A program made the position numbers and the translations under genes. A stretch of 6,866 nt of DNA, from IMG/VR virus record IMGVR_UViG_3300049597_000266; one strand, 5' to 3'. Under the pieces are notes generated by a model. That model worked only from the letters and a program-made list of their open reading frames with translations, was not told the DNA's origin and searched no databases. Below, piece by piece: positions 1,017 to 6,866 of this stretch; the stretch's first letter is position 1, and each line of letters starts with the position of its first letter. Source of the DNA: a virus (Duplodnaviria; Heunggongvirae; Uroviricota; Caudoviricetes).

Positions 1017-1410
1017 AGCGGTGCCTTATGTCCGCAATAACCCGGACAAACTGCATCTGTTTGTGGATAACGGTTCGCTGGTTGCCACGGGGGCCAGCTC
1101 CATGTCGTGGGAGTACCGTTACACCCTGAACGCGGTGATTGAGGATTTCAGCGGCGACCAGAATCTGCTGATGGCCCCGGTTTTGCTGTGGCTGCGGGAT
1201 AACCAGCCCGATGCCATCAATAACCCGGCGTTACGGGAAAAACTATTTACCTTTGAGGTGGATATTCTGCGCAACGATGTCTGTGATATCAGCCTTAACC
1301 TGCATCTGACGGAACGTGTGCTGGTCAGCACTGACGGCAGTGTGTCGAGCGTTGAAGCTGTAGCAGAACCCGATGAACCTGAAGAAATGTGGACGGTGAA
1401 ACGTGGCTGA
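979..1410 (+). CDS. R: Tail completion protein R (P2 gpR-like)
   Basis: ORF reading MNKPQSLRHALNKAVPYVRNNPDKLHLFVDNGSLVATGASSMSWEYRYTLNAVIEDFSGDQNLLMAPVLLWLRDNQPD... resembles my recollection of P2 gpR. Start chosen as GTG 979 with AGGAG at 967-971; the ORF-track start at TTG 958 is an alternative. The start overlaps the lysC 3' end, and the TGA stop at 1408-1410 overlaps the S start. Confidence 0.8.
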   Translation: MNKPQSLRHALNKAVPYVRNNPDKLHLFVDNGSLVATGASSMSWEYRYTLNAVIEDFSGDQNLLMAPVLLWLRDNQPDAINNPALREKLFTFEVDILRNDVCDISLNLHLTERVLVSTDGSVSSVEAVAEPDEPEEMWTVKRG

Positions 1411-1849
1411 ACTGCAGACGGTGGACGACTGGCTTAGTGCCTTACTGGCGAATCTGGAACCAGTCGCAAGAAGCCGCATGATGCGCCAGCTGGCGCAGGA
1501 ACTGCGCCGGACACAGCAGCAGAATATCAGGATGCAGCGCAATCCAGATGGCAGCAGTTATGAACCGCGCAAGGTCACGGCGCGCAGTAAAAAAGGCCGC
1601 ATCAAACGTCAGATGTTTGCAAAGCTGCGCACCACCAAATACCTGAAAACCGCCGCCAGCGCCGACTCTGCCAGCGTACAGTTTGAAAGTAAGGTGCAGC
1701 GCATTGCCCGCGTTCACCATTATGGCCTGCGCGATCGCGTCAGCCGCAAAGGACCGGAAGTGCGTTACGCAGAGCGTCGTTTGTTGGGTCTTAATGGTGA
1801 GTCTTACGTTCTAACTCGTGATATATTGAATAGATTCCTTCTGTCTTGA
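1403..1849 (+). CDS. S: Tail completion protein S (P2 gpS-like); last ~17 codons lie in the AT-rich island (probably a chimeric C-terminus)
   Basis: 148-aa ORF with motif LEPVARSRMMRQLAQELRRTQQQNIRMQRNPDGSSYEPRK matching my recollection of the P2 gpS N-terminal region. GTG 1403 overlaps the R stop by 8 nt. From about nt 1798 the codons become AT-rich and rare for enterobacteria (cta, ata, aga) up to the stop at 1847-1849. Confidence 0.8.
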   Translation: MAELQTVDDWLSALLANLEPVARSRMMRQLAQELRRTQQQNIRMQRNPDGSSYEPRKVTARSKKGRIKRQMFAKLRTTKYLKTAASADSASVQFESKVQRIARVHHYGLRDRVSRKGPEVRYAERRLLGLNGESYVLTRDILNRFLLS

Positions 1850-2597
1850 ATTCACCATATGCCCAATGAATTGCATTTTTTTGTTCAGTCAGAATATATT
1901 TCCTAACTTTTTTAGAATAGTGAATGGTCAGTATAAAACCCAAAGAAATCCATAATAGAATAAATATGGTTGTTGGGGCAAAGGAATAGATAAAGAATTT
2001 GTCTTTAACGAAATTCTTGACTTCTTCATCAATGTAAGTATTCCCTTCATCAGAGGTTAGTAGTTTACAAAGAATTTCTTTATGTTCTATAGTTAATGAT
2101 TTGTACTTCTCTGTACTGGCAGAGGATGACTCTTCGCAATCATCTTTTGATATTTCCCAATCAGGAGTGGTTAATATTGTAGCTGCAGTCGCCAGTTTTT
2201 TTGACATATAAAATGATTCACCGGACTTTATCCAATAAAGCAATGTGCTATTTGGTGGGGTTCTAATGGCTTGGATGAAAACTGGACCAAAAATATAAAT
2301 TGCACACAAAAAAAGAAGTGAAAAGAGAACCGTGATTGATTTTTCAGCCCATGTGATAGTAGGCAGCCTTTTTAATGATATTCGTATAAGAAAAAAATTT
2401 AATATAAACGCAGGTATTCCTGATTTTTTCAAAATTACATCATGAGATTTTCTATATTTGAATAGTGCTCTTATAACTATCGTCACCAAAGTTATAACAG
2501 CTCCAATAATGGAAATCCATGCGGCAAGTGCCGCTGCCGGGGTGTTTAAAAATTCAGCATTAAATATATTAGAACTTATTGGATTCATAACACTCAT
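1791..2597 (-). CDS. Hypothetical four-helix integral membrane protein (268 aa) encoded by the AT-rich moron; function unknown
   Basis: An 807-nt ORF uninterrupted in ~30% GC DNA, where stops are frequent by chance. ATG at 2597 (minus) is preceded by GGTGGATAA (RBS-like). Four hydrophobic segments: AAALAAWISIIGAVITLVTIVIRALF, IPAFILNFFLIRISL (weaker), ITVLFSLLFLCAIYIFGPVFIQAI and FFIYSFAPTTIFILLWISLGFILTIHY. A hydrophilic, acidic ~90-aa domain sits between helices 3 and 4. Its 3' end overlaps the S 3' end convergently by 59 nt. No homology recognised. Confidence 0.65.
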   Translation of the reverse strand: MSVMNPISSNIFNAEFLNTPAAALAAWISIIGAVITLVTIVIRALFKYRKSHDVILKKSGIPAFILNFFLIRISLKRLPTITWAEKSITVLFSLLFLCAIYIFGPVFIQAIRTPPNSTLLYWIKSGESFYMSKKLATAATILTTPDWEISKDDCEESSSASTEKYKSLTIEHKEILCKLLTSDEGNTYIDEEVKNFVKDKFFIYSFAPTTIFILLWISLGFILTIHYSKKVRKYILTEQKNAIHWAYGEFKTEGIYSIYHELERKTHH

Positions 2598-2700
2598 TTA
2601 TCCACCTATTGGTTGTTTTTTATCCTTTTATCAATTTGTACCATCGATACCACAATTTGCAAGAAGTTATAAACAAGTTTTCAGCTGTCATCATATATCT
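1795..2700. other. AT-rich island (~30% GC against ~55% in flanks) at the S-V junction; probable horizontally acquired moron
   Basis: Abrupt compositional shift visible by eye. One 60-nt sample (1861-1920) counts 17 G+C (28%). The island carries one long ORF on the minus strand and is bounded by the tail genes S (left) and V (right). No terminal inverted repeats or target-site duplications were seen. Confidence 0.7.
2637..2654 (+). promoter_or_regulatory. TGT-N12-ACA dyad, candidate Ogr/Delta-type activator site of the P2 late promoter for the V operon
   Basis: Sequence TGT ACCATCGATACC ACA at 2637-2654 (palindromic core ATCGAT), flanked by direct repeats CAATTTG (2632-2638 and 2653-2659). 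It lies about 55 nt upstream of the V ATG, in the intergenic region between the divergent moron ORF and V. P2 late promoters are known to carry TGT-N12-ACA centred near -55. The -10 and transcription start are not resolved; TATAAA at 2669-2674 and TATAT at 2694-2698 are candidates. Confidence 0.35.
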
Positions 2701-3279
2701 ATGAACGCACAACTAACCGAAATCATGCGCCTTATCACCAATCTGATCCGCATAGGTGTAGTCACCGAAGTGGACCGGGAAAACTGGCTTTGTCGGGTGA
2801 AAACGGGCGACCTTGAAACCAACTGGATCAGCTGGCTGACGCTGCGCGCGGGTAATGCCCGCACATGGTGGCGACCATCGGAAGGTGAGCAGGTGGTGCT
2901 GCTGAGTCTGGGCGGCAATCTGGAGACTGCCTTTGCGCTGCCCGCTGTCTATTCGAATCAGTTCGCACCACCGTCGACGTCGGCGGACGCCTGCGTGACA
3001 GAACATCCTGACGGTGGCTGGTTTGAATACGAACCCGCCACCGGGCGCTGGTATGTCAGGGGCATCAAATCAATGGTCATTGAGGCCGCTGATAACATCA
3101 CCATGAAAACCAGTGAGTTTGTACTGGAGGCTGACCGCACGCGCATTAACAGCGAAGTGGTGATCAATGGTGGCGTTACCCAGGGCGGCGGAGCGATGAG
3201 TTCTAACGGGATCGTGGTTGATGCGCATCAGCATACTGGCGTCCTGAAAGGCGGCGATACAACCGGAGGCCCGGTATGA
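2701..3279 (+). CDS. V: Baseplate assembly / spike protein V (P2 gpV-like)
   Basis: 192-aa ORF, MNAQLTEIMRLITNLIRIGVVTEVDRENWLCRVKTGDLETNWISWLTLRAGNARTWWRPSEGEQVVLLSLGGNLETAFALPAVYS..., matching my recollection of P2 gpV (..IRTGIIVETD..CRVQTG..WLTHRAG..RTWWAPSVGEQV..GGELDTAF.LP). Start placed at ATG 2701, the first ATG after the AT-rich intergenic region; ATG 2725 is an alternative. No clear Shine-Dalgarno. The ORF-track extension back to 2458 is rejected. Confidence 0.85.
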   Translation: MNAQLTEIMRLITNLIRIGVVTEVDRENWLCRVKTGDLETNWISWLTLRAGNARTWWRPSEGEQVVLLSLGGNLETAFALPAVYSNQFAPPSTSADACVTEHPDGGWFEYEPATGRWYVRGIKSMVIEAADNITMKTSEFVLEADRTRINSEVVINGGVTQGGGAMSSNGIVVDAHQHTGVLKGGDTTGGPV

Positions 3280-3635
3280 CGCTTTATAGCGGGATGAACA
3301 ATACCAGCGGCAAAGTCATTACTGATATTGACCATCTGCGCCAGTCGGTGCGGGACATTCTGCTGACGCCGCAGGGTAGCCGCATTGCTCGCCGTGAATA
3401 TGGTTCCCTGCTGTCGGCACTGATAGACCAGCCACAAAATCCGGCGTTACGCCTGCAGGTCATGTCGGCAGTGTATGTGGCGCTGAGTCGCTGGGAGCCA
3501 CGGCTGACGCTGGATTCCATCACCATTAACAGCAATTTTGACGGTTCAATGGTGGTGGGACTGACCGGGCGGCGTAATAACGGTGTGCCTGTTTCCCTTT
3601 CCGTATCAACAGGAGCAGAGAATGGCAGTGATTGA
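3276..3635 (+). CDS. W: Baseplate wedge protein W (P2 gpW, T4 gp25-like)
   Basis: 119-aa ORF with ATG overlapping the V stop (ATGA) and GGAGG 8 nt upstream. Sequence ...RQSVRDILLTPQGSRIARREYGSLLSALIDQPQNPALRLQVMSAVYVALSRWEPRLTL... is typical of the GPW/gp25 family. Confidence 0.9.
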   Translation: MTLYSGMNNTSGKVITDIDHLRQSVRDILLTPQGSRIARREYGSLLSALIDQPQNPALRLQVMSAVYVALSRWEPRLTLDSITINSNFDGSMVVGLTGRRNNGVPVSLSVSTGAENGSD

Positions 3636-4530
3636 CCTTTCGCAGTTGCCTGCGCCGCAGATTGTCGATGTGCCGGACTTTGAGACGTTGCTTGCCGAAC
3701 GCAAGGCCGAATTTGTTGCGCTTCATCCGAAAGATGAGCAGGAAGCCGTGATCCGCACGCTGGAACTGGAATCTGAACCCGTCACCAAATTGCTGCAGGA
3801 GAATGCTTACCGTGAGTTGCTTCTGCGCCAGCGCATTAACGAAGCCGCGCAGGCGGTGATGGTGGCTTACGCGATGGGCGGCGATCTTGACCAGCTCGCT
3901 GCCAACTACAACGTGAAACGCCTGACGGTGACGCCTGCTGATAATGACGCTGTGCCGCCCGTTGCGGCTGTGATGGAAAGCGATGAAGCGTTACGCCTGC
4001 GTGTGCCTGCAGCCTTTGAAGGGCTTTCAGTTGCGGGGCCAACTGCAGCCTATGAATTTCATGCCCGAAGCGCCGACGGTCGGGTGGCGGATGCCAGTGC
4101 AACCAGTCCGGCACCTGCAGAGGTGGTACTGACTGTCCTTAGCCGTGAAGGCGACGGAACAGCAGAAAAAGACCTGCTGGATGTGGTGGAAAAAGCCCTG
4201 AACAGTGAGAACGTCCGCCCGGTGGCTGACCGTCTGACGGTTCGCAGCGCAGAAATCATCCCGTATCGCGTGGAAGCCACCATTTTTCTCTATCCGGGAC
4301 CGGAAGCAGAGCCGGTAATGGCAGCGGCAAAAGCCAGCCTGCAGAAGTACATCGCCAGTCAGACGCGTCTTGGTCGGGATATTCGCCGTAGCGCCATCTT
4401 TGCCGCCTTGCATGTTGAGGGTGTGCAGCGTGTGGAGCTGGCTTCTCCTCTGGCGGATGTGGTCCTGAACAAAACACAGGCGGCATCATGTACGCAGTGG
4501 AGCGTAACCAACGGAGGAACGGATGAATAG
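3622..4530 (+). CDS. J: Baseplate assembly protein J (P2 gpJ-like)
   Basis: 302-aa ORF from ATG 3622 with AGGAG at 3611-3615. Sequence MAVIDLSQLPAPQIVDVPDFETLLAERKAEFVALHPKDEQEAVIRTLELESEPVTKLLQENAYRELLLRQRINEAAQAVM...RLGRDIRRSAIFAALHVEGVQRVELASPLADVVL matches my recollection of P2 gpJ. Overlaps the W 3' end by 14 nt. The ORF-track start at 3583 is an in-frame upstream extension. Confidence 0.9.
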   Translation: MAVIDLSQLPAPQIVDVPDFETLLAERKAEFVALHPKDEQEAVIRTLELESEPVTKLLQENAYRELLLRQRINEAAQAVMVAYAMGGDLDQLAANYNVKRLTVTPADNDAVPPVAAVMESDEALRLRVPAAFEGLSVAGPTAAYEFHARSADGRVADASATSPAPAEVVLTVLSREGDGTAEKDLLDVVEKALNSENVRPVADRLTVRSAEIIPYRVEATIFLYPGPEAEPVMAAAKASLQKYIASQTRLGRDIRRSAIFAALHVEGVQRVELASPLADVVLNKTQAASCTQWSVTNGGTDE

Positions 4531-5043
4531 TCTGCTGCCACCGGGTTCAACACCACTGGAGCGCCGACTGGCGCAAACCTGCAGCGGGATTTCTGATCTG
4601 CAGGTGCCGCTTCGTGACTTGTGGAATCCGGCAACCTGTCCGGTCAGTTTCCTGCCTTATCTCGCCTGGGCGTTCTCTGTGGATCGCTGGGACGAGGACT
4701 GGACAGAAAGTGTCAAGCGCCAGGTGGTGAAGGATGCTTTTTATATTCATCAGCATAAAGGGACCACCAGTGCCGTGCGGCGGGTGGTGGAGCCGTTCGG
4801 CTTTCTGATCCGCATTATTGAGTGGTGGCAGACCGGATAAGCGATGCCAAACCATGCAGCCGTCACATGATCGGCATGTCCATCAACCTGCAGACCAGCG
4901 GCCCGCATTGGGTGGGAGCCGCCAGCTATCTTGGCGAAGAAATCACGATCTATCCGTATATCAACGAAACAATTATTTCCGGTGGCACCGCGCATGAAGG
5001 CGGGGCGGTCCATGTTATTGACACAATGAGAGTGAATCCATGA
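4523..5043 (+). pseudogene. I: Baseplate protein I (P2 gpI-like), interrupted by a frameshift near 4819-4840
   Basis: The N-terminal 105-aa ORF (4523-4840, frame 2) carries typical gpI motifs (LWNPATCPVSFLPYLAWAFSVDRWDEDW...VVEPFGFLIRIIEWW). The downstream ORF (4822-5043, frame 1) resembles the gpI C-terminus (DAKPCSRHMIGMSI...EEITIYPY). The two overlap by 19 nt, and the combined span (521 nt) is 1 nt short of a single ~173-codon gene. The ATG overlaps the J stop; the second ORF's stop overlaps the H ATG. Confidence 0.6.
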
Positions 5044-6662
5044 GCACAAAATTTTATACCCTGCTGACGGATATTGGCGCGGCGAAACTTGCCAGCGCCG
5101 CCGCGCTCGGTGTGCCTTTAAAAATTACCCATATGGCGGTCGGCGATGGCGGCGGAGTATTGCCAACGCCGGATGCAAAGCAGACTGCACTGGTGAATGA
5201 GAAACGCCGGGCTGCGCTGAATATGCTCTATATCGACCCGCAGAACAGTAGCCAGATTATTGCTGAACAGGTAATCCCTGAAAATGAGGGCGGTTGGTGG
5301 ATACGTGAAGTGGGCCTGTTTGATGAGTCCGGGGCATTGATTGCCGTGGGAAACTGCCCGGAAAGCTATAAGCCGCAACTGGCTGAAGGCAGTGGGCGTA
5401 CCCAGACCGTGCGCATGGTGCTGATTACCAGCAGCACGGACAATATCACCCTGAAAATCGACCCTGCCGTCGTGCTGGCAACCCGCAAGTATGTGGATGA
5501 CAAGGTACTGGAGCTGAAGGTGTTCGTGGATGATAAGATGGCAAAACATCTTGCCGCACCGGACCCGCATTCACAGTATGCACCCAAAGAAAGCCCGACA
5601 TTGACCGGAACACCCAAAGCGCCAACGCCAGCGGAGGGGAATAACACCACGCAGATTGCGACCACCGCGTTTGTTCAGGCGGCACTGATGGCCCTTATTA
5701 ATGGTGCGCCAGCCACACTGGATACGATGAAAGAAATTGCCGCTGCCATTAATAATGACCCGAAATTCAGTACCACCATTAACAATGCGCTGGCACTGAA
5801 AGCGCCGCTGTTAAGTCCGGCATTCACCGGAACGCCAACAGCCCCCACTGCCGCACAGTCGGTTAACAATACACAGATTGCCACCACGGCTTTTGTGAAA
5901 TCGGCAATTGCGGCAATGGTGGGGTCTGCACCTGCTGCACTGGATACACTGAACGAACTGGCTGCGGCGCTGGGGAATGACCCGAACTTTGCCACGACAA
6001 TGCTTAATGCGCTGGCAGGTAAACAACCGTTGGACAATACGCTGACTAATTTGAGTGGAAAGGATGTAGCTGGTCTTCTCGCATACCTTGGTTTGGGAGA
6101 TGCATTAATTGGTGATGAATGTAAAATTGCAGGGTTTGACAGTAGTAACGTCAATGCCCCGTATATGCGATTCGCCAGAACAAATACAGTAGTTCGTCTG
6201 GCAACAAAAGACTATGCGCAACCAAAAGACCAGACACTGACAGATTTAAGCGGTAAGGATAAGGCTGAACTAAGAACTTATCTTGATCTGAAAAGTGCGG
6301 CTCAAAGGGATGTTGGCTCAGGGGCAAATCAGATTCCGGATATGAATGACTTCACATCCAGCCTGACCAGCCCTGGCTGGCAAAAATTACCGTCAGGTCT
6401 GATTATTCAGTGGGGGGCAGCCAATCCATCATCAACTGGAGAGATCTTTATTACGTTTCCTGTCGCGTTCTCTGCATACCCGATGTATGTGGGATTTGGT
6501 CCTCAGCAGGCATCGCTTCCTAACGTAGTTCAGTCGCCAGTAATTTCAGCGCCAACGATAACTAATTTAGGATGCGGCGTCCGAAATCTGATGATTCCAA
6601 CAGCGGGCGGAGCACCAGTAGCCAGCATGAGTTCATTTTTCTGGATTGCGGTAGGGAAATAA
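5040..6662 (+). CDS. H: Tail fibre protein H (P2 gpH-like N-terminus with a divergent C-terminal receptor-binding region)
   Basis: 540-aa ORF. N-terminus MSTKFYTLLTDIGAAKLASAAALGVPLKITHMAVGDGGGVLP...GGWWIREVGLFDESGALIAVGNCPESYKPQLAEGSGRTQTVRMVLITSS matches my recollection of the conserved baseplate-attachment domain of P2 gpH. The region SPAFTGTPTAPT...NTQIATTAFV...LDTLNELAAALGNDPNFATTMLNALAGKQP also matches P2 H. The C-terminal third (from about 6030) is divergent and lower in GC. Confidence 0.9.
   Translation: MSTKFYTLLTDIGAAKLASAAALGVPLKITHMAVGDGGGVLPTPDAKQTALVNEKRRAALNMLYIDPQNSSQIIAEQVIPENEGGWWIREVGLFDESGALIAVGNCPESYKPQLAEGSGRTQTVRMVLITSSTDNITLKIDPAVVLATRKYVDDKVLELKVFVDDKMAKHLAAPDPHSQYAPKESPTLTGTPKAPTPAEGNNTTQIATTAFVQAALMALINGAPATLDTMKEIAAAINNDPKFSTTINNALALKAPLLSPAFTGTPTAPTAAQSVNNTQIATTAFVKSAIAAMVGSAPAALDTLNELAAALGNDPNFATTMLNALAGKQPLDNTLTNLSGKDVAGLLAYLGLGDALIGDECKIAGFDSSNVNAPYMRFARTNTVVRLATKDYAQPKDQTLTDLSGKDKAELRTYLDLKSAAQRDVGSGANQIPDMNDFTSSLTSPGWQKLPSGLIIQWGAANPSSTGEIFITFPVAFSAYPMYVGFGPQQASLPNVVQSPVISAPTITNLGCGVRNLMIPTAGGAPVASMSSFFWIAVGK
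5592..6029 (+). repeat. Two tandem ~72-aa (216-nt) tail-fibre repeat units within H
   Basis: Residues 185-256 (SPTLTGTPKAPTPAEGNNTTQIATTAFVQAALMALINGAPATLDTMKEIAAAINNDPKFSTTINNALALKAP) and 259-330 (SPAFTGTPTAPTAAQSVNNTQIATTAFVKSAIAAMVGSAPAALDTLNELAAALGNDPNFATTMLNALAGKQP) align over their full length with about 60% identity; nt 5592-5807 and 5814-6029. Confidence 0.8.
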
Positions 6663-6663
6663 T

Positions 6664-6866
6664 ATGTACAAATACAGTGCTAAAAAAAATGCGTTTTATC
6701 TGGCTGGTAATGAGGCCGTATACCGCGATTCCGGCACATGGCCTGATGATGCAAAAGATATTGAAACCCGACGTGCCGAGTCGTTTATGGCGACACCTCC
6801 GCAGGGTAAGCGACGTATTGCAGGTGCAGACGGAATGCCTGCGTGGGCAGATATTCCTTCACCCAC
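6664..6866 (+). CDS. Partial CDS (3' end outside window), putative tail-fibre assembly chaperone (gene G position)
   Basis: ATG at 6664, 1 nt after the H stop; frame open to the window end (67 codons): MYKYSAKKNAFYLAGNEAVYRDSGTWPDDAKDIETRRAESFMATPPQGKRRIAGADGMPAWADIPSP. Position immediately downstream of the tail fibre gene and the N-terminal NAFY...Y...G.WPDDA pattern suggest a Tfa-type chaperone. Assignment is mainly by synteny. Confidence 0.5.
   Translation, partial: MYKYSAKKNAFYLAGNEAVYRDSGTWPDDAKDIETRRAESFMATPPQGKRRIAGADGMPAWADIPSP

Follow-up and report, generated by a model that had tools for sequence, protein, structure and literature searches.

Among the closest described counterparts of the gene studied here are phage proteins acting at the inner membrane. 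SieA of phage P22 is a three-transmembrane (TM) inner-membrane protein sufficient to block injection (PMC10883804), an effect shown experimentally and escaped through mutations in the ejection proteins gp16 and gp20. The gp15 moron of the siphovirus HK97 encodes a small YebO-like exclusion protein that is expressed from the prophage and inserts into the inner membrane (PMC3594210). T4 Imm, a small, early product of a lytic phage, is a membrane protein that halts myovirus genome translocation at the inner membrane; its binding partner in a contractile-tailed phage is the tape measure protein (bioRxiv 10.64898/2026.03.06.709160). The cargo genes of P2 itself (old, tin and Z/fun) and the retron Eco1-type cargo of the prophage analyzed here are AT-rich accessory genes that occupy fixed slots and are kept when the prophage decays.

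We analyzed a window of 6,866 nucleotides and found it to be the defective P2-like prophage carried by E. coli B/BL21(DE3), with three substitutions and one deletion (83 bp, gene I) as the only differences. Between the late genes S and V it carries a gene of the DUF6216 family that resembles SieA in arrangement: both are single prophage genes placed antisense at the end of a structural block, their products have three TM segments (predicted for DUF6216) and a conserved cytoplasm-facing motif, and their sequences are highly divergent (<30% identity between SieA sequence types). SieA is shorter (162–164 aa) and lacks the ~90-residue periplasmic disulfide domain predicted in DUF6216, and exclusion, demonstrated for SieA, is our hypothesis for DUF6216. 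Homology of the two was rejected, as hhalign gave an E-value of 0.18 and no detectable relationship.

Like the HK97 gp15 gene, the DUF6216 gene is a compositionally distinct insertion in the tail region with chromosomal homologues outside prophages in Enterobacteriaceae, but the proteins are unrelated in sequence, and gene flow from host to phage was proposed for gp15 whereas the opposite direction is apparent for DUF6216. For a P2-type tail, Imm provides the most pertinent mechanistic precedent, although its sequence and fold are unrelated to the DUF6216 model. DUF6216 shares composition, fixed position and persistence with the P2-like cargoes; these, however, are cytoplasmic nucleases, ATPases and reverse transcriptases that sit in other slots and have PADLOC models, whereas DUF6216 is a membrane protein without one. 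We hypothesize, at a probability of about 40%, that the DUF6216 protein, expressed in the lysogen, serves as an inner-membrane factor for superinfection exclusion. Defence or exclusion appears the most plausible class for the protein because the gene has repeatedly persisted in decayed prophages, in some cases beside recognised defence cargo.

A cargo gene in the orf30 slot

The junction of S and V contains the following features:

1798–2700, no strand: AT-rich island at the S/V junction of the defective P2-like prophage, delimited by composition and similarity edges
1791–2597, minus strand: 268-aa coding sequence of the DUF6216 family (PF19723), from the open reading frame (ORF) list, the Pfam match and purifying selection
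2601–2607, minus strand: Shine-Dalgarno-like AGGTGGA, 3 nt upstream of the ATG, its GGAGG/GGTGG core kept in 13 loci
1403–1849, plus strand: tail completion gene S (PF05069), its 3' end overlapping the DUF6216 gene tail to tail
2701–3279, plus strand: baseplate spike gene V, first in the PV operon (PF04717 plus Apex)

The GC content was 32.5% in the island, compared with 56.8% over positions 1–1790 and 56.4% over 2701–6000, and the GC fraction of 200-nt windows ranged from 0.29 to 0.375 within 1801–2700 and from 0.50 to 0.625 on either side, out to about 6000. These values bear out the ~0.9-kb AT-rich island described in an earlier note on this DNA. On the left, likeness to the S gene of Klebsiella phage 4LV2017 stops near 1797–1800; on the right, megablast similarity to related phages restarts at 2699, just 2 nt ahead of the start codon of V. 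A search for RNA families and for flanking direct repeats as insertion signatures gave nothing convincing. The region is 99.8% identical to the BL21/REL606 prophage.

A moron in the definition of Juhala and Hendrix (as given in PMC3594210) differs in composition from flanking genes that are adjacent in a related phage, and we found both properties here: in 4LV2017, S and V are 68 bp apart and the slot is empty. In phage Cartapus the slot is occupied by an unrelated soluble 176-aa protein, and in P2 by the low-GC, nonessential orf30, which agrees with the earlier proposal that the junction is a variable cargo site. The same proposal had placed the island inside one tightly packed late operon; the P2 record instead gives the order O-operon terminator, orf30, Ogr site and V promoter, a boundary between two late operons. 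The island carries a moron-type cargo gene and fills the "orf30 slot" of P2-like phages, the interval that separates the O..S late operon from the promoter of the V..G operon.

The sole ORF of at least 50 aa wholly within the island is the 268-aa frame on the minus strand, which together with its ribosome-binding-site-like sequence had been anticipated by the earlier note. It has a GC3 of 26%, and its product differs from that of BL21(DE3) (ECD_RS04470, WP_000115390.1) by a single residue (S182 for T182). Pairwise dN/dS, computed for pairs with dS above 0.3 and unsaturated, was 0.13–0.34; overall it was about 0.13–0.26, and it stayed below 0.6 in every gene segment, including comparisons of one remnant with another. 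Given these low ratios and the intact homologues at 47–99% identity, the ORF is a real gene under purifying selection, and a chance reading frame in AT-rich DNA is ruled out. The gene shares its last 59 nt (1791–1849) with the 3' end of S, in which the final ~17 codons consist of island DNA, and the same tail-to-tail overlap was present in four other loci. For V, the TTG start at 2458 in the ORF list was rejected as a spurious upstream extension.

Family membership, predicted architecture and P2 Orf30

The earlier note recognised no family. The protein, however, matches Pfam DUF6216 (PF19723) with 44.4 bits against a gathering threshold of 27.3 (E 1.6e-11), a match confined to residues 72–237 and profile positions 114–265 of 270, and the BL21 copy already bears this family name in RefSeq. 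A precomputed PF19723 match was present in 31/31 full-length homologues. The family is small, with 50 cluster representatives among 1.84 billion, and confined to Enterobacterales. Its members are 232–296 aa long and have in common three TM segments and, in the domain between TM segments, an invariant pair of cysteines; hydropathy follows the same pattern in the members from Dickeya and Tatumella.

Beyond Pfam, profile and fold searches returned little. No PADLOC-DB v2.0.0 family matched the DUF6216 protein at E-values up to 1, nor did any match P2 Orf30 or Cartapus gp14, and the NCBIfam search gave nothing meaningful. The PHROG scan yielded four matches, all with E-values of 0.15 or weaker and none to an exclusion family. 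A holin or antiholin identity was rejected, the sole match being phrog_4237 (E 0.26 over 27 residues) and the gene being antisense to the lysis and tail operon. Sequence profiles of the PDB gave no match, nor did the modeled fold resemble any PDB entry, and a fold search of BFVD with the model gave nothing below an E-value of 0.3; the predicted fold is without known relatives in these two databases. As tblastn (E 1e-5) against 50,697 GenBank phage records was also blank, the gene is absent from the sequenced isolated phages of that set.

The coding sequence divides into the following segments:

2463–2537, minus strand: TM1, residues 21–45 (hydropathy, AlphaFold)
2337–2462, minus strand: basic loop, residues 46–87 with nine K/R, predicted cytoplasmic or interfacial
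2265–2336, minus strand: TM2, residues 88–111 (hydropathy, AlphaFold)
1995–2264, minus strand: soluble domain, residues 112–201, a four-stranded sheet plus helices in the model, predicted periplasmic
1917–1994, minus strand: TM3, residues 202–227, continuous with a long helix at 183–247
1794–1916, minus strand: basic C-terminal tail, residues 228–268 with eight K/R, predicted cytoplasmic

A 19-residue Kyte–Doolittle window and the AlphaFold model (pLDDT 87.8, pTM 0.75) agree on three TM helices (~21–45, 88–111 and 202–227). Four had been proposed; the additional segment, at 61–75, falls under the hydropathy threshold and is modeled as a short nonspanning helix. The N-terminal 20 residues, which lack K and R, are predicted to lie on the periplasmic side, and the charge distribution as a whole is consistent with the positive-inside rule. 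From hydropathy, charge bias, the predicted model and the cysteine pair, the product is predicted to be an inner-membrane protein with its N terminus outside, a periplasmic domain and a cytoplasmic tail. The soluble domain of about 90 residues described earlier is indeed present, but it is only mildly acidic (16 acidic versus 12 basic residues).

Within the soluble domain, Cys154 (2136–2138) and Cys177 (2067–2069) are the only invariant residues in an alignment of 39 sequences reaching down to 14% identity, which suggests that they form a periplasmic disulfide; F129 and W147 are nearly invariant in the same alignment. The most constrained segment was the loop at 46–87 (dN/dS 0.05–0.20), which carries the motif K-[SA]-G-[IV]-P-x-F. 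A segment-wise test, including the periplasmic domain, detected diversifying selection in no segment.

The closest candidate relative outside the family is P2 Orf30 (NP_046770.1, 261 aa, nonessential), which occupies the same S/V slot in the same antisense orientation, is similar in size and has 34% GC. It also resembles DUF6216 in architecture, with three hydrophobic segments, two conserved cysteines between TM2 and TM3 and a basic tail. Comparing the two with hhalign, the Orf30 alignment consisting of five sequences, we obtained a probability of 50%, an E-value of 1.6e-4 and a score of 35.7 over 82 columns, whereas the reversed alignment scored 13.8 and 60 block shuffles scored 25.0 at most. 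The aligned part takes in both cysteines, the last TM segment and the tail. BLASTP gave an E-value of 0.047; Orf30 has no Pfam match, and tblastn at E 1e-5 produced no link with DUF6216. The two also differ: the N-terminal halves cannot be aligned, the TM1–TM2 loop has ~80 residues in Orf30 and ~40 in DUF6216, and the cysteines are spaced by 17 and 23 residues, respectively. P2 Orf30 is probably a remote homologue of DUF6216.

Candidate promoter and persistence after prophage decay

Upstream of the DUF6216 gene, two elements overlap on opposite strands:

2635–2662, minus strand: candidate sigma-70 promoter of the DUF6216 gene, from conservation across loci
2637–2654, plus strand: TGT-N12-ACA dyad of the Ogr/Delta activator-site type, belonging to late promoter PV, from sequence and a spacing as in P2

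The candidate promoter consists of a –35 element TTGCAA (2662–2657), a 16-nt spacer and an extended –10 element TGgTACAAA (2643–2635). A generic scan found no promoter upstream of the gene, because this –10 element lacks the final T. Nevertheless, both blocks were kept in 13/13 aligned upstream regions, among them four remnants that lack V, and the lone Franconibacter copy has a similar arrangement (TTGCTA-N16-TAAAAA). The dyad, which this conserved promoter-like element overlaps, is centered 55.5 nt upstream of the V start, equal to the distance in the P2 annotation (activator site 10239–10266, V start/TSS 10308), and it also precedes the copies in Dickeya, Tatumella and Erwinia. Its TGT half has degenerated to TAT in three remnants without V, which retain the –35 and extended –10 blocks. 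As no intrinsic-terminator-like sites were found within 1600–3000, the unit falls short of the textbook picture of a self-contained moron.

The gene lay antisense at S/V in every intact prophage examined, at 13 loci as well as in Dickeya (18% identity) and Tatumella; across the family, the gene is nearly always found in this arrangement and is almost exclusively phage-borne. One copy was located in a MobA/TraD element near a SIR2 gene. The earlier note had regarded conservation as a core gene at this position as an argument against cargo. The gene is tied to the slot from Dickeya to E. coli, as a core gene would be, yet within E. coli it is still accessory, the island being present in 111 of 5426 complete genomes and related S/V flanks in 1052.

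This attachment to one slot could reflect an accessory function for the phage itself, in lysis timing, virion release, injection or guarding the induced cell from re-adsorbing progeny. The gene follows closely on the lysis cassette (lysB/lysC, R, S) and adjoins the spike gene, its position is kept throughout the P2-like phages of Enterobacterales, and its candidate promoter and the PV Ogr site interlock. We consider such a role highly improbable, as the gene is antisense to both late operons and missing from many viable relatives, such as 4LV2017 and Cartapus; moreover, the P2 record annotates orf30 as nonessential, and genomes stripped of all other phage genes keep DUF6216 under purifying selection.

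At least seven decayed prophages contain an intact DUF6216 gene. Between ybjL and rcdA in Citrobacter sedlakii (L009/L016) no other phage gene survives, and the same holds in Franconibacter, where the GC content has risen to 45% and the gene is common to two species. Intact copies were also found in decayed prophages of C. youngae, Scandinavium, Serratia rubidaea, Klebsiella aerogenes and Erwinia billingiae and at three further loci (L015, L023 and L034). The gene probably protects its host, since bacteria keep it intact after the surrounding P2-like prophage has decayed, and its repeated lone retention after prophage erosion is strong comparative evidence of a benefit to the bacterium. Some remnants have retained defence cargo beside the gene, a retron in BL21 and an Old/AriA-like ATPase in Scandinavium.

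The company of such abortive-type cargo, as well as the copy near a SIR2 gene, could indicate abortive infection. The protein would then be an idle inner-membrane effector, damped by H-NS for its toxicity, that on sensing a phage component forms oligomers or opens, dissipates the membrane potential and kills the infected cell ahead of progeny production. A single gene for a multi-pass membrane protein without an enzymatic domain would suit this role, and the loop and tail on the cytoplasmic side, the parts that would sense an intracellular trigger, are under the strongest constraint. The one paper found to mention the gene, a 2026 preprint on H-NS-silenced, toxic immunity genes in BL21, contains "DUF6216 gene" once, "BL21" 29 times and "P2-like" four times, but neither "superinfection exclusion" nor "abortive infection" (10.64898/2026.09.05.749240). 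We hold abortive infection to be unlikely: the protein has no PADLOC match, no partner antitoxin or sensor gene was found in any context examined, a disulfide-stabilised periplasmic domain would be superfluous for a cytoplasmic sensor and the presence of a lone chromosomal gene across the whole genus Franconibacter suggests low toxicity.

Proposed superinfection exclusion and its possible targets

Under superinfection exclusion, the lysogen would transcribe the DUF6216 gene from its own weak sigma-70 promoter, back to back with PV and overlapping the Ogr site of the latter. H-NS bound to the AT-rich DNA would probably damp this promoter, and Ogr together with late antisense transcription would shut it off. 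The protein would act at the envelope, to the benefit of the host, its periplasmic domain and membrane helices hindering the delivery of incoming phage genomes across the inner membrane in a manner comparable to P22 SieA, HK97 gp15 and T4 Imm. If so, the interlocked promoters of the moron and PV would form a compact switch between lysogenic and lytic expression.

Two features of the selection pattern count against exclusion. The segment under the strongest constraint faces the cytoplasm and is not the periplasmic domain, and the diversifying selection expected from direct arms-race contact with parts of incoming phages was not seen. The blank searches with models of known exclusion and defence proteins, the lack of similarity to P22 SieA and an uninformative fold search add to these.

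Phages T1–T7 were isolated on E. coli B, a carrier of the gene, which P2 has been reported to lysogenise and which remains sensitive to the classical T phages. It follows that the natively expressed gene does not exclude those phages, which likewise counts against exclusion.

The sensitivity of E. coli B and the lack of arms-race selection would fit a lysogenic-conversion or host-envelope role unrelated to phage replication, such as immunity to R-type (P2-tail-like) tailocins, colicins or other envelope toxins, or a contribution to stress tolerance or fitness. The membrane location and predicted periplasmic domain are compatible with such a role, and a benefit independent of any particular phage is suggested by the long-term domestication of the gene in Franconibacter, with its GC amelioration, and by its survival alone in Citrobacter sedlakii. 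The protein, however, shows no likeness to known immunity, transporter or envelope-modifying families, and the family is almost exclusively phage-borne and tied to one slot; we regard this explanation as quite improbable.

If the DUF6216 protein is an exclusion or defence factor, it would extend the repertoire of phage resistance by a family of new fold and make S/V a third cargo hotspot of P2-like phages besides old/tin and Z/fun. It would probably also provide a function for P2 orf30, now listed as a nonessential hypothetical protein. The gene is carried by E. coli B/BL21(DE3), among the most widely used laboratory strains.

A wider-reaching version of the exclusion hypothesis, which we think unlikely as it stands, would unite DUF6216 and P2 Orf30 in an old, slot-specific superfamily with an orphan fold. 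Its members, inner-membrane proteins encoded next to the spike gene, would stop contractile tails, either of rival Peduoviridae or of P2-derived R-type tailocins, at the inner membrane, for example by the disulfide-bonded periplasmic domain capturing the tape measure or tube tip, and would have been repeatedly domesticated by Enterobacterales as a stand-alone shield. With such a superfamily, P2-like phages would have their first described exclusion system; it would give P2 orf30 its function and would already be present, silenced by H-NS, in BL21.

A gene in the slot between S and V

In 200-nt windows, GC content falls from 0.50–0.62 to 0.29–0.375 at about 1800–2700 and recovers immediately afterwards. 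The AT-rich island that an earlier note had described between S and V from the sequence alone is real, with 32.5% GC for 1800–2700 vs 56.8% for 1–1790 and 56.4% for 2701–6000, and the opposite-strand ORF with an RBS-like sequence was found as described. The features are as follows.

1791–2597, minus strand: DUF6216 gene, 268 aa, GC3 26%; the only ORF of at least 50 aa wholly within the island
3 nt 5' of the DUF6216 ATG, minus strand: AGGTGGA, RBS-like, from the sequence
Left flank in the window: LysB/LysC, R and S, by Pfam
Right flank in the window: V, W, J, I and H, by Pfam

Comparison with relatives placed the island's left edge near 1797–1800, within the 3' end of S, whose final ~17 codons are accordingly island DNA, and the right edge at 2699–2700, 2 nt ahead of the V start codon. 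The DUF6216 and S frames converge and share 59 nt at their 3' ends.

The gene is real and under purifying selection, and it is bound to one place in P2-like phages, the inter-operon slot between S and V. All the intact P2-like prophages that we examined have it there in antisense orientation, with the 3' end adjoining S or running into it, and the placement holds for copies at 47–50% identity (loci L018, L036 and L037), for a Dickeya copy at 18% and for the Tatumella copy. It was absent from all 50,697 GenBank phage records, and S adjoins it in the only two "plasmid" records that bear it. Among 5426 complete E. coli genomes, the island occurs in 111, related S/V flanks in 1052 and P2 orf30 in 464. 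The junction is a variable site, as the earlier note had said: the slot is empty in Klebsiella phage 4LV2017 (S–V distance 68 bp), filled by an unrelated soluble 176-aa protein (32% GC) in Escherichia phage Cartapus and occupied by orf30 in P2. Insertion inside one packed late operon, as first proposed, has to be revised, since in the P2 genome annotation the slot has the O-operon terminator on one side and the Ogr-activated V promoter on the other; cargo placed there disrupts no operon. A Pectobacterium brasiliense copy (L040) has no P2 context and is found in an element that also encodes a MobA/MobL relaxase and TraD, indicating that the gene is able to reach other mobile elements.

The Cartapus protein, gp14 (L011 1877–2407), is antisense and cysteine-rich, negative for Pfam, PADLOC and DUF6216 similarity, and represents a second uncharacterised cargo type of the slot. 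A SIR2_2-domain gene lies a few kb from the Pectobacterium copy (L040 1–1159 and 9315–12711). The related intact prophage L002 carries, between the tail-fibre assembly and sheath genes, an antisense Acyl_transf_3 gene (4672–5739, 355 aa) that resembles an O-antigen acetylase, is negative in PADLOC and marks another tail-region cargo slot.

The object is not new. Region 1400–3300 matches the defective P2-like prophage carried by E. coli B derivatives, among them BL21(DE3), REL606 and C41/C43, at 99.8% identity, and the BL21(DE3) copy (ECD_RS04470, WP_000115390.1) is publicly annotated as "DUF6216 family protein", so that element and family name already stand in the annotation of a very well-known strain. 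The likeliest class, prophage morons encoding envelope-acting protective proteins, is also well established. Our analysis adds the slot-specificity of the gene, its lone retention through prophage decay, the predicted topology and orphan fold of its product, a probable link to P2 orf30 and a candidate promoter interlocked with that of V; the gene is a good and cheap experimental target.

Predicted protein and its relation to P2 Orf30

The protein, for which no family had been recognised, passes the Pfam DUF6216 (PF19723) threshold with 44.4 vs 27.3 bits; PADLOC, PHROGs and NCBIfam returned nothing meaningful for it. A word-indexed search of 5.8 billion proteins gave 32 relatives at 50–98% identity in Escherichia, Salmonella, Klebsiella, Citrobacter and Serratia, while 1.84 billion cluster representatives, searched exhaustively with a profile, yielded 50 matches at E 1e-3 or better and no more, the named members all being Enterobacterales (Cedecea, Franconibacter, Erwinia, Pectobacterium, Pantoea, Tatumella and Dickeya). 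On these counts the family is small and taxonomically narrow, and it is entirely uncharacterised.

Using a 19-residue hydropathy window, we found three strong transmembrane (TM) segments, centred near residues 33, 99 and 216. The earlier note had proposed four, but its additional segment (61–75) fell below threshold, and AlphaFold has nothing longer than short helices between residues 50 and 82. The AlphaFold model (pLDDT 87.8, pTM 0.75), built on a diverse 39-sequence alignment with identities down to 14%, contains helices at 20–46, 83–111 and 183–247 and a compact domain of four strands (118–150) followed by helices (151–181); the fold is an orphan, confidently predicted. Across these sequences, C154 and C177, both in the compact domain, are the only invariant residues, and F129 and W147 come close to it. 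A cysteine pair that stays invariant while the rest of its domain evolves fast is a sign of a structural disulfide, and on this reading the compact domain is placed in the periplasm. The charge distribution agrees, with no K/R in the N-terminal 20 residues, nine in loop 46–87 and eight in the C-terminal tail. The predicted topology would then run from an outside N-terminus through TM1, a cytoplasmic or interfacial loop, TM2, the periplasmic domain and TM3 to an inside C-terminus.

P2 Orf30 (261 aa, 34% GC) shares the slot and orientation, and has three hydrophobic segments (9–27, 109–127 and 221–239) with family-invariant cysteines 177 and 194 between the second and third. It had no match in Pfam, and its BLASTP match to the window protein was marginal (E 0.047). 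Profile–profile comparison, with only 5 sequences on the Orf30 side, gave a probability of 50%, E 1.6e-4 and a score of 35.7 over 82 columns that pair both cysteines, the last TM helix and the basic tail; the score was 13.8 for the reversed Orf30 alignment and no higher than 25.0 in 60 block-shuffled versions. Remote homology of the C-terminal halves is probable from these alignments, short of proof.

Retention, and proposed regulation and function

The gene is accessory to the phage and repeatedly retained by the host. In Citrobacter sedlakii (L009, L016) it is the sole phage gene remaining between ybjL and rcdA, and it is likewise the sole survivor in Franconibacter (L038), where it is common to F. 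pulveris and F. daqui and its GC has climbed to 45%, compared with ~33% for copies within prophages and 56% for the flanking DNA. It is retained with an S fragment in C. youngae, with ogr, a V fragment and S in Serratia rubidaea, next to an IS element and S and R fragments in Klebsiella aerogenes, and beside a CI repressor gene and a 662-aa Old/AriA-like ATPase in Scandinavium sp. (L005 7861–9849 = L017). Further remnant variants occur (L015, L023, L034 and Erwinia billingiae L042), and the E. coli B prophage itself matches the pattern. The ORFs of all these remnants are intact, and pairwise dN/dS is 0.13–0.34 where dS is >0.3 and unsaturated, remnant–remnant pairs included. The repeated persistence of this 0.8-kb gene out of ~33 kb, under purifying selection, is difficult to account for without host benefit. 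Survival without the phage makes a phage-internal accessory role improbable. Genus-level domestication and the absence of arms-race selection would suit a non-phage envelope role, such as tailocin or colicin immunity, which we nevertheless consider quite doubtful. The Scandinavium ATPase matches the PADLOC AriA (E 2e-20), mad3 and Old models and, judged by these matches, is recognised defence cargo that outlasted the same decay.

An alignment of the gene's upstream regions (200 nt each) at 13 loci showed two conserved blocks, TCTTGCAA and, 16 nt downstream, GATGGTACAAAT.

2662–2657, minus strand: candidate −35, TTGCAA, in a block conserved across the 13 loci
2643–2635, minus strand: candidate extended −10, TGgTACAAA, in a block conserved across the 13 loci
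2637–2654, between the two blocks: TGT-N12-ACA, an Ogr/Delta-type activator dyad by sequence

The dyad centre lies 55.5 nt upstream of the V start, exactly matching the P2 annotation. In three V-less remnants the TGT half-site has decayed to TAT and the −35 and −10 blocks remain; the lone Franconibacter copy has a similar TTGCTA-N16-TAAAAA, the dyad being absent. This persistence suggests that the blocks are signals of the DUF6216 gene itself, a candidate promoter interlocked with the Ogr site, which is supported by cross-locus conservation and was not called by a generic promoter scanner. Late lytic Ogr binding would occlude it while switching on PV, the promoter of V. A terminator scan found none, and read-through from the O operon would thus add antisense interference. 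H-NS may also damp the gene.

We hypothesize, with a probability of roughly 40%, that the function is superinfection exclusion at the inner membrane. This reading is favoured because the protein is almost all membrane and periplasm, lacks any enzymatic or cytoplasmic sensor domain and needs no partner gene, and because it is similar in kind to SieA, gp15 and Imm. In HK97, the tail-operon moron gp15 encodes an inner-membrane protein that stops genome entry in a manner dependent on the incoming phage's tail (PMC3594210); the three-TM inner-membrane protein SieA of P22 is enough by itself to block injection, and its escape mutations lie in ejection proteins (PMC10883804); and T4 Imm binds the tape measure protein (bioRxiv 10.64898/2026.03.06.709160). 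P22 sieA is antisense at the end of the structural operon, as the DUF6216 gene is at the S–V junction, and no sequence relationship between the two was found. The main rival, an abortive-infection type membrane effector, would draw on the strong constraint on cytoplasm-facing parts and on the theme of toxic, H-NS-silenced genes; we regard it as rather unlikely.

Phages T1–T7 were isolated on E. coli B, so the gene at native expression does not block them, and any targets must lie outside T1–T7 or the effect be masked by silencing. The name DUF6216 came up in only two distinct works of the literature searched. One, a 2026 bioRxiv preprint, [quoted passage not shown], mentions "DUF6216 gene" once, "BL21" 29, "P2-like" 4 and "retron" 7 times, and has no instance of "abortive infection", "superinfection exclusion" or "membrane protein"; the single mention suggests that the gene is not its main subject.

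Further observations on the source prophage

The BL21(DE3) prophage (L001) sits between rcdA and ybjL and is without much of the head and tail gene set. At the window start (1–455; L001 18167–19059), the 3' part of the GPO capsid-scaffold gene is fused directly to an endolysin gene fragment, a partial pseudogene in RefSeq. The major capsid, small terminase, head completion, tail X and holin genes, found between O and K in intact relatives (e.g. L002), are therefore deleted, and the prophage is defective. A retron just upstream of the portal gene (L001 13167–15215, outside the window), for which the annotation gives an St85-family effector and a reverse transcriptase, is a second AT-rich cargo locus retained there.

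Compared end to end with BL21, the window has three substitutions, one changing T182 to S in the DUF6216 protein, and an 83-bp deletion in baseplate gene I (4523–5043). The missing stretch (L001 23439–23521) falls at 4836–4838 and leaves two ORFs, 4523–4840 and 4822–5043. A 201-bp query of this region gave two aligned pieces spanning ~286 bp in the complete E. coli genomes among the best matches listed, all of which thus retain the stretch; the loss could be specific to this strain or be an artefact of assembly.

Identity among these prophages is 55–100% for the spike protein V (2701–3279) vs 80–100% for its neighbours W and J, and low-identity V types tend to accompany divergent DUF6216 types, a pattern that may reflect linkage or functional coupling. 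The tail fibre gene H (5040–6662) is 72–100% identical among otherwise near-identical prophages, and GC drops to 0.41–0.49 in its 3' third (6000–6800), the C-terminal part, which bears a Gp53-like_C domain; this sequence pattern points to a mosaic, exchanged receptor-binding end.
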